Below, in pieces: positions 4,063-48,670 of a DNA stretch of 64,000 nucleotides. Below the pieces are notes generated by a model, which saw only the letters and a list, made by a program, of their open reading frames with translations, searched no databases and was not told the DNA's origin. Each line of letters begins with the position of its first letter. The first letter of the stretch is position 1. This DNA comes from an uncultured Spirochaetota bacterium. Its GTDB lineage: Bacteria > Spirochaetota > Spirochaetia > SZUA-6 > CAVTHK01. A program made the position numbers and the translations under genes. The stretch is taken from assembly GCA_963734495.1 (NCBI GenBank), contig CAVTHK010000007.1, positions 96,001 through 160,000 on the forward strand, in the 5' to 3' direction.

Positions 4063-4137
4063 AGGCCCTCGCCTGTTGTACTCAACAGGCCCTCGCCTGT
4101 TGTACTCAACAGGCCCTCGCCTGTTGTACTCAACAGG
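4063..4137. repeat. 3 x 24-bp perfect tandem repeat forming palindromic hairpins
   Basis: AGGCCCTCGCCTGTTGTACTCAAC at 4063, 4087, 4111; reads GCCTGTTG-TACT-CAACAGG(C) across each unit junction. Confidence 0.97.
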
Positions 4138-4211
4138 TTGCATTCCGGCGGGACTTTCGCCTATGATCGCACCCGAATGGCGAGCCTTCCCGCCGGAGTC
4201 TGGACGAACCG

Positions 4212-7662: not shown

Positions 7663-7782
7663 GAACATCCCTGTTCCAGCCCCGCACCAACGCCATCCAT
7701 GGCTGTGCGGGGCAAGAACATCCCTGTTCCAGCCCCGCACCAACGCCATCCATGGCTGTGCGGGGCAAGAACATCCCTGTTC
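7663..7782. repeat. 2.3 x 53-bp tandem repeat of nested hairpins (dispersed family member)
   Basis: GAACATCCCTGTTC at 7663, 7716, 7769; GCCCCGCAC..GCCATCCATGGC..GTGCGGGGC inside each unit. Confidence 0.97.
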
Positions 7783-7812
7783 TTGACACCAAAAAGAAGC
7801 GCATGGTACGTT
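7783..7812 (+). promoter_or_regulatory. Putative sigma70 promoter for yebC-ruvCAB-queA
   Basis: TTGACA-18 nt-TACGTT with TG extension. Confidence 0.6.
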
Positions 7813-19980: not shown

Positions 19981-20526
19981 ATGAGACTGGCACCCGTTGC
20001 CGTCCTCCTGCTTCTTGGCGCCGCGGCGCTCCATGCCGAACAGGAGATCACCAAGATCGGCGTGGTCGACACGAGCCGGATCTACTCCGTCTATTTCCAG
20101 GATTCCAAGGCCGTCCGCGACCTCGCCGCGTTCAAGCAGTCCATCCTCGAAGAGTCCGGCCGGCTCAACGACGAGATCACCGGGCTGCAGGCCGCCAAGG
20201 TCAACGCGGAGCGCGACGGCCGCAAGGACGAATCGCTGCGCCTGGAGAGCCAGATCCTCGAGAAGGAGAACTTTCTCAGGGAGTATCAGCGGGTCAAGAA
20301 TCTGGAGTTCCGCTCGCGGCAGAGCAAGGTCGAGGTGGAGTCCTCGTTCCTGGGCGAGCTCGCGGACGCGATCGCCTACGTGGCGGTCAGCGAAGGCTTT
20401 TCCATGATCATGGAGAAGCAGAACCCCATCTTCCTGTACTTCACGCCCGAGAGCGACATCACCGAGAAAGTGCTCCAGCACCTGTTCGAAAAGGCGGGCA
20501 AGACCTACACGCCCGGCGGGAACTGA
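19981..20526 (+). CDS. skp: OmpH/Skp periplasmic chaperone
   Basis: Signal peptide; KIGVVD...DITEKVL; follows bamA; AAGGAG RBS. Confidence 0.88.
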   Translation: MRLAPVAVLLLLGAAALHAEQEITKIGVVDTSRIYSVYFQDSKAVRDLAAFKQSILEESGRLNDEITGLQAAKVNAERDGRKDESLRLESQILEKENFLREYQRVKNLEFRSRQSKVEVESSFLGELADAIAYVAVSEGFSMIMEKQNPIFLYFTPESDITEKVLQHLFEKAGKTYTPGGN

Positions 20527-20648
20527 GCACAGGGATGTGCTCGCCCGGCGCGACAGGCGCTCGTCCCGCGCGCTTTGGCCCAGCGTACTCGCTGGGTACT
20601 CGCGGGAGACGTCGAGAGCGCCGGGCTGAGCCCTCAAGCACTTGAGGG
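20522..20648. repeat. Dispersed hairpin-family element between skp and mutS
   Basis: 27-nt identity with reverse complement of 48178-48204; GAGCACA-GGGA-TGTGCTC and CCCAGCG-TACT-CGCTGGG hairpins. Confidence 0.9.
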
Positions 20649-23312: not shown

Positions 23313-23332
23313 GCCCCCCGAGTACGGGGGGC
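23313..23332. repeat. Single AGTA-loop hairpin immediately after the mutS stop
   Basis: GCCCCCCG-AGTA-CGGGGGGC between convergent mutS and rpmE. Confidence 0.85.
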
Positions 23333-35477: not shown

Positions 35478-35619
35478 GGCCTGGCGCTTGTACCTCCATG
35501 TGCGCGCCAGGCCCGGGACATCACCATGCCGCCTTGCCCGGGCGCTCTACGTCCCCGGTGAGTACACCGGGCCAAGGCGCCTGCAGCGCCCGGGCCCGCG
35601 ACCTCCCCGTCGCTTGACC
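35478..35619. repeat. Degenerate hairpin-family element between tatD and purF
   Basis: CCCGGTG-AGTA-CACCGGG then CCAAGGCGCCTGC (cf. CCAAAGCGCCTGC at 48051); ends GCGAC-CTCCCC-GTCGC-TTGACC. Confidence 0.75.
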
Positions 35620-47109: not shown

Positions 47110-47561
47110 CCCGCAGGCAGAAGGTGATGCAGGAGCGGATCCGCCGGGTCCGCTTGCTGTTCCGAGAAGCCGGCTACCGCACCAGCGGGGCGGAGCAGTC
47201 GGACGAATCCTACAGCGCGACGTTCACGGGGCCCAAGGGGGCCGAGGGCGGCCTGTTCATCGACAGGGACAGCCGGTTCCTGGAAATCGGCTACACGTTC
47301 TCGTTTTCACCGTCGCTCTCGGAGTTCGTCAAGGAGCGGCTGGAAGAGATCATGCGGGTGGCCTACGAATACGGCTGCTACCCGAATATCGTGGCCGGCA
47401 AAGGGGAGATCGTGCTCTCGGTCTTCAGCAAGATCTATTTCTCGGGCCTGAACTACTACTCGCTGCGCGACAGCCTGCTCGACTTCAATCAGTGCGTCGA
47501 AGCCATCACCGACATCGTGGACATCGAGCACCGCGACGCGGAGGCCGGACAGTCCGAGTGA
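47106..47561 (+). CDS. Hypothetical protein
   Basis: TTGA overlap with upstream stop; coding-like composition. Confidence 0.7.
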   Translation: MTRRQKVMQERIRRVRLLFREAGYRTSGAEQSDESYSATFTGPKGAEGGLFIDRDSRFLEIGYTFSFSPSLSEFVKERLEEIMRVAYEYGCYPNIVAGKGEIVLSVFSKIYFSGLNYYSLRDSLLDFNQCVEAITDIVDIEHRDAEAGQSE

Positions 47562-47571
47562 GGGGGGACGG

Positions 47572-47799
47572 CTACCTCGCGGCTTTCAGCAGCGTGCGGA
47601 GGCCGCGGGCGCTGACCCGGATCCTCCGCTTGATGCCGTCGATGTAGACGGTCTTCTTGTGAAGGTTGACCTTGAACTTGCGGTGCGTGGTCACGCCAAT
47701 GTGCTGGCCGGCGCCGCCCTTCTTCTTCAACATACCCTTGCGCGGGACGTTGTGTCCGAATCGGGTCTTCTTGCCCGTGATCTCGCAGGTTCTGCCCAT
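47572..47799 (-). CDS. rpmB: 50S ribosomal protein L28
   Basis: MGRTCEITGK, RKFKVNL, VSARGLRT. Confidence 0.95.
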   Translation of the reverse strand: MGRTCEITGKKTRFGHNVPRKGMLKKKGGAGQHIGVTTHRKFKVNLHKKTVYIDGIKRRIRVSARGLRTLLKAAR

Positions 47800-47833
47800 C
47801 AATGTGCTCCCGTGTAAAGTCAGACGGCGGCTG

Positions 47834-47862
47834 AACCTACCGTTTTGCCGCGAAAAAGTCAA
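47834..47862 (-). promoter_or_regulatory. Putative sigma70 promoter of rpmB
   Basis: TTGACT-17 nt-TAGGTT. Confidence 0.6.
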
Positions 47863-48204
47863 GGACAGGGACGTCCTTGCCCGGCACAGCCATGCGCCCT
47901 GGTCCGGCGTACTCGCCGGAGAGGGCGATAGTGCCGGGCTGGAACACGGATGTTCTTGCCCGGGCGCGCCAGGGATGGCGTGGCGCCCAGGCTGGGACAG
48001 GGATGTCCATGTCGGCCTCGGGCGAGCGGGTCCCCCGCGAGTACGCGGGGCCAAAGCGCCTGCGCTCAGCCCGGGGCTTCCGACATCCGTGTCGGCCTCG
48101 GGCGAGCGGGTCCCCCGCGAGTACGCGGGGCCAAAGCGCCTGCGCTCAGCCCGGGGCTTCCGACATCCGTGTCGGCCCCGGGCGAGCACATCCCTGTGCT
48201 CAGT
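47858..48204. repeat. Largest composite hairpin-family element, including a 2.2 x 80-bp tandem repeat
   Basis: Left arm homologous to reverse complement of 7663-7787; 80-bp units at 48010, 48090, partial 48170; right end matches 20522-20548. Confidence 0.97.
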
Positions 48205-48487
48205 AGTGCTCGGAGAGGATCTTCGCGTCGCTCACCCGGCCCGGGATGTTGTTCTCCACGAAATGAAGGATGCGGTTCATGACCTGCTCCCCCAGCTTGC
48301 GCGAGTTGGAGACGTACGCCGCTCCCAGCTCGGCGAACGACAGCGACTCCTGAAGGTCGACCTCGGCGATCGCCACGCGGAAGCGGTTGCGGATCTTTTC
48401 CTTGAGGCTCGACACCACCTGGCGCTTGTCCTTGAGCGAAGTGCTGCCGGGGATCTCGATGATGACGCGAATCAGGGAAACGACCAT
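48200..48487 (-). CDS. DUF503 (YlxP-like) protein
   Basis: SLKDKRQVVSSLKEKIRNRFRVAIAEVD. Confidence 0.9.
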   Translation of the reverse strand: MVVSLIRVIIEIPGSTSLKDKRQVVSSLKEKIRNRFRVAIAEVDLQESLSFAELGAAYVSNSRKLGEQVMNRILHFVENNIPGRVSDAKILSEHY

Positions 48488-48670
48488 GCAGCGACCTCAC
48501 CCGCAGGCGCGGCGGCCGAAGAGCCGCGCCCCTCGGCTCGAGTCTGCGCGGCCGCCGCACTGAGGCGCGGATCCGTGGCTCGAGCCGATTTCGTCTGGAT
48601 AGGGGGCCCCGCATGTGGCAATATACACCGTAGTTCGCCCGTTGATCACGCGAAACCGGCGAGAGGCTCG

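Follow-up and report, generated by a model that had tools for sequence, protein, structure and literature searches.

The window, a stretch of 64,000 nucleotides from an uncultured spirochaete (G000:C7:96001-160000), carries the housekeeping genes yebC, bamA, mutS, rho, purF and purD. The focal genome (G000) comprises 5.38 Mb in 18 contigs with 68% G+C and 83% completeness, and is that of a spirochaete by gene content, featuring three FlaA matches, against none in 14 control genomes, and a flgL-fliW-csrA operon. A second genome of the same genus (G001, 99% complete) was used for comparison. Noncoding DNA was defined by our own gene caller, which covers 76% of the focal genome, misses some genes and leaves 1.25 Mb noncoding. 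A G+C-rich coding repeat of ~240 bp with a 9-bp period (1456-1698, within ORF 1250-2344) is unrelated to the hairpins described below.

A sequence-only reading of the window had described seven intergenic regions built from two hairpin types, type A with a GAGTAC loop (GTACTC on the other strand) and type B with the core CA-TCC(C/G/A)-TG, and all seven regions together with every hairpin listed were confirmed at their window positions. The focal locus consists of two arrays of B units placed face to face, filling the entire gap from a -35 box to a stop codon. R1 in the list refers to a search model of the unit.

47857..47862, minus strand: -35-like box TTGACT, with TAnnnT 17 nt further; the left array starts flush on the box
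47863..47938, plus strand: B unit 1, with a short AGGGAC-loop hairpin (47863-47876) and a long bulged hairpin with a cassette-split loop; R1 match G000:C7:143855-143945
47895..47920, plus strand: 26-bp type-A cassette of an 8-nt tail and a 6-bp stem with a GTACTC loop, within the B loop between ATG and GAG
47942..47993, plus strand: B unit 2, intact, with loops ACGGAT and AGGGAT 25 nt apart
47995..48008, plus strand: first hairpin of a truncated third B unit, meeting point of the left and right arrays
48006..48165, minus strand: two 80-bp tandem copies, each a 54-bp B unit with a 26-bp type-A cassette in its first loop
48033..48058, minus strand: 26-bp type-A cassette in a split B loop
48113..48138, minus strand: 26-bp type-A cassette in a split B loop
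48148..48199, minus strand: outermost B unit of the right array, intact, with loops AGGGAT and ACGGAT
48200..48202, minus strand: TGA stop of gene 48200-48487, on which the right array lies flush; the same stop is found at the empty G001 site

The TTGACT box serves the short minus-strand gene 47572-47799, which we take to encode ribosomal protein L28, and the same five letters are present at the array-free orthologous site in G001. The 80-bp period corresponds to a 54-bp B unit plus a 26-bp cassette. The other six regions are occupied as follows.

4063..4137, minus strand: three tandem 24-bp type-A units, flush on a TTGCAT box at 4138; G001 has the box without units
7663..7782, minus strand: tandem B units with a period of 53, flush on TTGACA (7783-7788) before yebC
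20527..20632, plus strand: B unit flush on TGA (20524-20526), its second loop holding a type-A hairpin
20571-20596, plus strand: second cassette, in the loop of a type-A hairpin that itself sits in a B loop of the preceding unit
23313..23332, plus strand: single type-A hairpin directly after the mutS stop; G001 has 5 nt between the two stop codons
27653..27710, plus strand: B unit with an imperfect first hairpin
35547..35586, minus strand: split B loop holding a 26-bp type-A cassette (35554-35579)

Next to the first of these regions, comparison of 4140-4210 with G001:C8:13396-14192 revealed a gene (presumably SurE-like, judging from its first residues) that is present in G001 and absent from the focal genome, which keeps its promoter and a short remnant; the three type-A units are docked on the promoter left behind.

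Two sister families of twin-hairpin units

The window contains 9 type-A and 12 type-B hairpins, compared with means of 0.03 (maximum 1) and 1.69 (maximum 5) in 100 third-order Markov simulations. Across the genome, a scan of every loop of 3-6 nt puts GAGTAC at the top in enrichment, with 55 hairpins against 2.7 expected, followed by GCGGAC, GAGGAC, GAAGAC and AGGGAT. In total, 63 type-A, 37 type-A-sister and 79 type-B hairpins were counted in noncoding DNA, against 0.8, 1.4 and 8.0 in 12 fourth-order Markov simulations, and the intergenic location noted in the window holds on this scale as well: the word GTACTC is enclosed by a stem of at least 5 bp in 63 of 561 noncoding versus 7 of 1972 coding occurrences, and ATCCCT in 22 of 380 versus 0 of 744. 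The hairpins form ~130 clusters, 41 of them with more than one hairpin, and some of the single-hairpin clusters are chance occurrences. Two near-identical regions of the focal genome (G000:C18:52999-54560 and C1:858706-860267, 96% identity), like the near-identical flagellin leaders at C4:6518 and C15:6045, suggest strain mixing or assembly duplication, so that the counts may include a few doubles.

Read on the purine-rich strand, every loop follows R-N-R-K-A-Y and is closed by C-G. Type B, read on the strand opposite to that first described, is C-ANGGAY-G, in which the second letter is mostly G and can be any base, one letter more than the three first listed; type A is accompanied by sister loops. 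GGA is found in type B and in some of the A-type sister loops and is lacking from GAGTAC, GAAGAC and GGGTAC, and among 182 strong hairpins (stem of at least 5 bp) 101 have non-GGA loops versus 81 with GGA. The claim of fixed loops on free stems proved right for the loops and too strong for the stems, in which the closing C-G pair and some others are constant; across 22 copies of the cassette, variation is mainly confined to two of the six stem pairs. The linkers thought to be shuffled between hairpins turned out to be constant parts of the units, one being the tail of the 26-bp cassette and the other the end of the B unit.

Instead of loose modules, the hairpins make up twin-hairpin units of two sister families. 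A B unit is composed of a hairpin of 4-5 bp followed by a 3-bp hairpin on a bulge and an outer stem of 8-9 bp, with ANGGAY in both loops, 25-26 nt apart; tandem B units repeat with periods of 53-55. This spacing separates 25 of 39 neighbouring B-B pairs, and 14 of 29 A-A pairs (type A and sisters) lie 24-26 nt apart, so that a loop spacing of 24-26 nt and a unit size of ~50-55 bases are common to both families, while mixed A-B doublets are nearly absent (one pair). The ends of the unit itself carry CAAG or CTGA, having 3-4 letters in common with the host junction, and tandem copies join at such a word. No enclosing basal stem was seen around the outermost B units, as judged from their sequences.

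When noncoding ANGGAY pairs with a spacer of 19-21 nt were chosen by sequence alone, 27 of 44 formed 6 or 7 of the 7 stem pairs, compared with 0/19, 0/18, 2/32, 10/23, 1/26 and 0/15 at other spacers, of which 10/23 corresponds to the spacing of tandem units. In an alignment of 21 B units, 88.7% of the cells were paired, against 66.2% after shuffling and 30-43% in slid controls, and 63 changes affected both sides of a pair against one that affected a single side, with almost no G.U pairs; the first helix is understated in this alignment, as its 5-bp class is misaligned there.

When three stretches were folded as RNA, the z-scores were -3.0 to -6.9 and both strands folded well, hence the folding score cannot choose between them. 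A wobble test for strand bias of G.T in stems was flat within the focal genome. Among 84 type-B matches from outside, 45 have enclosing arms, and their lone mismatches are G.T on the ANGGAY strand in 26 cases versus 2, indicating that the ANGGAY strand is the one that folds, whether as RNA or as single-stranded DNA; this assignment comes from relatives outside the genome, which are themselves related to one another.

Junctions, nesting and turnover

On the purine-loop strand, TAG, TGA or CAA immediately precedes the first stem. One of these triplets stands at the foot of the outermost B units in 19 of 22 cases in the focal genome and 9 of 11 in G001, compared with a background of 5.4%, and the misses include chance hairpins left in the set. 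A same-strand stop ends exactly 4 nt before the loop in 10 of 80 noncoding B hairpins, and none ends 0-3 or 5-27 nt before it. The CAA junctions are -35 boxes in reverse, since TAnnnT follows 16-18 nt on in 13 of 18 external TTG junctions (three array-internal sites among 21 were excluded), against a background of 991/14438 (6.9%). The dinucleotide 3' of the first stem is, in one subclass of B units, complementary to the last two bases of the target triplet, and feet resembling GTAG were seen solely where they pair with a TAG junction. Stop-docked units carry ANGGAY on the mRNA strand, and in co-directional spacers ANGGAY agrees with the mRNA strand by 11:5. Units docked on promoters are placed upstream of the -35 box and carry ANGGAY on the other strand; they lie outside the adjoining transcript and antisense to it. 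Among A-type doublets, 5 of 19 are immediately followed by a ribosome-binding site. Units of other families in the order, inspected by eye, touch stops, ribosome-binding sites and tRNA ends, and B units of family f2 (L382, L383, L384 and L398) abut the 5' or 3' ends of tRNAs.

The type-A cassette is nested within loops. The 8-nt tail is present on 22 of the 81 noncoding A hairpins that form at least 5 of 6 pairs, and 14 of these 22 sit in a B loop at one position, splitting it as ANG|GAN, with the B stem still pairing over at least 3 bp in 10 of the 14. Four others split an A loop after its first letter, and the remaining four comprise two near-variants of the B case and two with unrelated flanks. 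This position specificity rests on the 81-hairpin set, as an unbiased split-loop scan at all positions was swamped by tandem copies. Cassettes with another tail were found by eye at the centre of A or A-sister loops in three cases, no target duplication was seen at the cassette insertions, and a split loop with a similar tail also exists in G001. Whole composites can be duplicated, and in some copies a different hairpin has taken the place behind the tail. For this reason only a minimum of three can be given for the independent nesting events, and the 14 B-loop cases may derive from one event.

The proposed character of a dispersed REP/BIME-like family is sustained by the intergenic location, the compensatory stems, the fixed loops and presence or absence at orthologous sites. 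G001 is collinear with the whole window, and its orthologous intergenic regions lack the hairpins at all seven loci and at one further locus immediately beyond the window; in five of the seven cases the array starts exactly at the end of the stop or TTG box that G001 shares. As G001 genes are only ~70-85% identical to those of the focal genome, the empty sites show the boundary and not the exact target. In the reverse direction, 18 unit sites of G001 were fetched, five of which had orthologous flanks on both sides: four are empty in the focal genome, with the break at a stop or CAAG, and the fifth has the same junction occupied by another unit. The focal genome likewise lacks one A-type array of G001 at the corresponding site. 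Among the sites compared, none holds the same unit in both species, and at a single site a two-genome comparison does not distinguish gain from loss. Reads from 4 of 13 small-share DNA runs contained neither an exact empty allele nor a contig joined across the focal array.

R1, a model biased to the focal genus, was searched in 92 genomes of the order with 57 candidates scored per genome, giving 42 copies in the focal genome and 21 in G001; 14 other genomes had 1-6 copies each, and the remaining 76 had none. The exact type-A word was absent from 300 genomes of the phylum outside the order; a looser word occurred 42 times in the focal genome, six times in G001 and no more than once per genome in the remaining 90 of the order, mostly by chance. 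Plasmids gave no match and viral contigs no match to the cassette pattern, and a loose loop pattern over 41 relatives gave no informative contrast. The twin-loop pattern of type B occurs in at least 121 stretches of a species collection, mostly from Gammaproteobacteria and also from Leptospirales and Clostridia, with a few chance hits. At 80 B-B loci fetched from outside, a recurrent neighbour gene was sought and only ordinary genes were found.

Probably mobile units, possibly CsrA targets

We put a probability of about one half on the reading that these elements are non-autonomous twin-hairpin repeats moved as folded single strands, which would be cut and rejoined by an enzyme acting in trans, most likely of the HUH type. 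The purine-loop strand would be the folded strand, and the break would fall at the 5' foot of the first hairpin, which would be joined to a pyrimidine-purine-purine triplet. In a genome of 68% G+C, the tolerated targets of this kind would mostly be stop codons, placing the unit in a 3' untranslated region, and reversed -35 boxes, placing it upstream of a promoter; opposite orientations would break the gene or the promoter and be lost. The loops would be kept as they are read by the mover or by a host protein on which it relies, and unpaired loops would also take insertions.

The HUH assignment is drawn by analogy from the excision, strand transfer and tandem growth of BIMEs and from the loop reading and tag-guided cut of TnpA-REP. 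HUH-driven excision, strand transfer and tandem growth are reported for BIME hairpin mosaics in the available part of PMC3333891. Group 3 TnpA-REP, as far as the consulted text describes it, reads single loop bases and has its cut chosen by pairing with a tag, comparable to the B subclass that pairs with its target triplet.

Type B is a relative of TwoAYGGAY (RF01731, clan CL00106), described by Weinberg et al. in 2010 (PMC2864571), and not a member by test. Both are composed of two sequential hairpins with AYGGAY-type loops, and the seed rows of TwoAYGGAY vary in the second loop letter as type B does. According to the available portions of the sources, TwoAYGGAY also resembles type B in its many copies, large copy-number differences and mobile-like behaviour with no known enzyme (PMC2864571, PMC4333381, bioRxiv 10.64898/2026.09.22.753630), Li et al. 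treating both its mode of spread and the role of its loops (CsrA or movement) as unresolved in the last of these. In contrast, a common basal stem encloses both hairpins of TwoAYGGAY, whereas the focal units have none and the outermost begin on a host stop or -35 box; the text available on TwoAYGGAY says nothing of docking on stops and -35 boxes, of nested cassettes or of a sister family without GGA. At the Rfam gathering score the window had no match, and RF01731 gave none at E up to 10 in 47500-48500, where the best clan match was RsmW (19.2 bits, E 1, the chance level). Genome-wide, no RF01731 match at E up to 1 was obtained in the focal genome (150 of 242 candidates scored) or in the control genomes. 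One of 20 outside twin-loop loci scanned scored 113.9 bits on RF01731, and with R1 the pattern site was weakly detected (E up to 1) at 25 of 40 outside loci, three of them reaching E below 0.01. The view that the hairpins are nameless is thus not upheld for type B, a relative of TwoAYGGAY that also matches the CsrA-hairpin consensus, and stands for type A: no account of the GAGTAC family or of hairpins nested in loops was found in the literature searched, subscription papers and the supplements of bioRxiv 10.64898/2026.09.22.753630 lying outside it. What is new is the sister family without GGA, the cassette nested in loops and the docking on -35 boxes, which was tested here; type B is close to described elements.

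That consensus underlies the strongest alternative, which is nevertheless unlikely: the units would be RNA elements kept by the host, in which twin GGA hairpins located in leaders and 3' untranslated regions titrate or recruit a CsrA dimer, and would spread by ordinary duplication under selection on the RNA. The type-B loop equals the consensus of CsrA-binding hairpins in the accessible text of PMC8668096, and a CsrA link was proposed for TwoAYGGAY by Gardner and Eldai (PMC4333381, seen in part). Like CsrA/RsmA hairpins and Csr/Rsm sponge RNAs, type B presents C-ANGGAY-G in short, paired hairpins, although a sponge is a single small-RNA gene and the present elements are a dispersed repeat with a type A devoid of GGA. 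The host has the csrA operon, GGA hexaloop hairpins occur in all four flagellin leaders examined (two of them, at C4:6518 and C15:6045, being near-identical copies), and the stop-docked units expose ANGGAY on the mRNA strand with the agreement in co-directional spacers given above. Of the 24 genomes of family f7 of the order, 23 are without csrA, several single-contig assemblies included, and none of the 24 has an R1 match; nearly all other genomes of the order have csrA, as do 13 of the 16 with R1 matches (the other three are 60-84% complete) and four of five distant type-B carriers. However, f7 is one lineage searched with a genus-biased model, and families f3, f4, f5 and f8 have csrA and no R1 match. 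A 12-letter pattern matched 13, 9 and 7 times in three csrA-less genomes versus 65 in the focal genome, a contrast blurred by coding bias.

Further observations fit this alternative poorly. GAGTAC, the commonest loop, and GAAGAC and GGGTAC lack GGA and yet share the geometry of the GGA units; the GGA itself is split by the cassette in 14 loops; promoter-docked units are antisense and upstream of the -35 box; the stems are almost free of G.U, and none of the sites compared holds the same unit in the two species. Type-B loops are still predicted to bind the host CsrA when transcribed, and such binding may help type B persist, which cannot explain type A.

It is possible, and put forward tentatively, that elements of the TwoAYGGAY type are one branch of a wider group of twin-hairpin mobile DNA whose mover would be neither a RAYT nor a classical transposase and would cut at hairpin feet and loops. 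If so, there would be a GGA branch and a GGA-free branch of identical geometry with a 26-bp cassette parasitising both, the CsrA-like loop would be one solution to a mobility signal or mimicry of the host regulator's site, and docking on stops and -35 boxes would provide a target rule for finding the enzyme. The GGA-free sister family with the same spacing and the GGA-destroying cassette offer a natural control for the role of the loop in CsrA binding versus movement, and the sharp junction rule together with the loop insertions gives direct clues to the chemistry. Units docked on stops or promoters may tune messenger stability or the availability of CsrA, which in this phylum is thought to be checked by FliW.

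Candidate movers and similar repeats

Less probable than host-kept RNA elements is an origin without any dedicated enzyme, in which slippage, template switching and gene conversion would multiply the units, one arm would be recopied from the other, keeping the stems perfect, and deletion at short shared words (TGAG, TAGG, CAAG) would bring a unit flush with a stop or -35 box. It would agree with the searches, in which no enzyme was found, with the near-absence of one-sided changes, which fits templated repair, with the 3-4 letters that the unit ends (CAAG, CTGA) have in common with the host junction, and with tandem periods equal to unit lengths. It leaves unexplained a 54-bp unit at dozens of unlinked sites, a different set in each species, as well as the fixed loops and a 26-bp cassette placed at one loop position without duplication.

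Mobilisation by a RAYT, as initially suggested, is not borne out. No Y1 gene (PF01797) was detected in the focal genome (83% complete) or in G001 (99% complete), although Y1 is present in 29 of the 92 genomes of the order; 30 Y1 loci, from 58 Y1 matches in the order, had no hairpin cluster and at most one chance hairpin each, and 24 Y1 loci from four Gammaproteobacteria carrying type B had none either. For each tag (GTAG or CGTC) and each strand, no more than three of the 133 B or of the 119 A-type hairpins had the tag at the stem foot. The statement that the window has no transposase holds for the two profiles used, PF01797 across the genome and PF04986 on the window's contig, and no mobile-looking gene lies between the five close cluster pairs (within 2.5 kb) of the focal genome. 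The preference of IS200/IS605 elements for the G-rich strand is not seen in the units (type B 20:25, type A 22:19), in a genome whose skew is weak. Lagging-strand targeting is mentioned for IS200/IS605 in the available text of PMC6006769.

Like the present elements, REPs and BIMEs are short intergenic palindromes forming mosaics and tandem arrays that vary between genomes, according to the parts consulted of PMC3733652, PMC3333891, PMC8266576 and PMC6006769. GTAG REPs are described there as often overlapping TAG stops, whereas here the stop belongs to the host and is the same at empty sites. The units differ from REP/RAYT systems in having no GTAG/CGTC tag rule and no RAYT gene, and in their conserved loops on variable stems and fixed twin spacing. 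Another comparison, by description only, is with MIRUs, which in the available text of PMC3184786 are 40-100 bp long, have 40-50 copies with G+C-rich inner inverted repeats and no cognate enzyme named, occupy filled and empty sites, and touch neighbouring genes with their ends, as do the A doublets before ribosome-binding sites; MIRUs feature 4-nt direct repeats and small reading frames instead of constant loops on stems that covary. TD-1/TD-2 of Treponema denticola (PMC1950547, seen in part) were considered as a likeness and set aside, also by description only.

The least probable source of the units is the ends of a resident IS91-family element (Y2 HUH), whose transposase would move them as non-autonomous derivatives: IS91-like genes, without Y1, do exist in both genomes, and A or B hairpins lie within ~450 bp upstream of three separate IS91-like 5' ends in the focal genome (C18 with its near-copy on C1, C5 and C8) and of one in G001, but the gene copies are broken, a hairpin stands within 400 bp upstream at only 5 of 66 loci from the order and metagenomes and is thus no regular part of the end, tblastn found no IS91-like or Y1 gene within 4 kb of any of the 80 outside B-B loci, and the hairpins there lie inside another repeat and may be passengers. 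Six hairpins were counted in 25 kb near IS91-like loci versus four in 112 kb further away, a difference confounded by intergenic content.

Several observations concern the IS91-like loci themselves. Many of the genes (L056-L085, L215-L297) begin at (A/T/G)TGTG right after an A+T-rich, -10-like stretch, upstream of which the DNA is unrelated, as if the 5' end of the element were the start codon. The idea that their shared leader is the Flavo-1 motif found no support, Rfam giving only rRNA at 10 IS91-like loci. A third repeat family of ~200-250 bp precedes several IS91-like genes, with ~10 copies in the focal genome and others in family f2 (G000:C5:71463, C3:56154, C11:497670, C12:13920 and C18:53765; L060, L063, L064 and L071). 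Its variable arms contain type-A hairpins, and Rfam gave nothing for it at E up to 0.05. In three f2 genomes (L060, L063 and L064), an IS91-like element with the third-repeat leader lies in or against the 23S rRNA, at nearly the same place in each.
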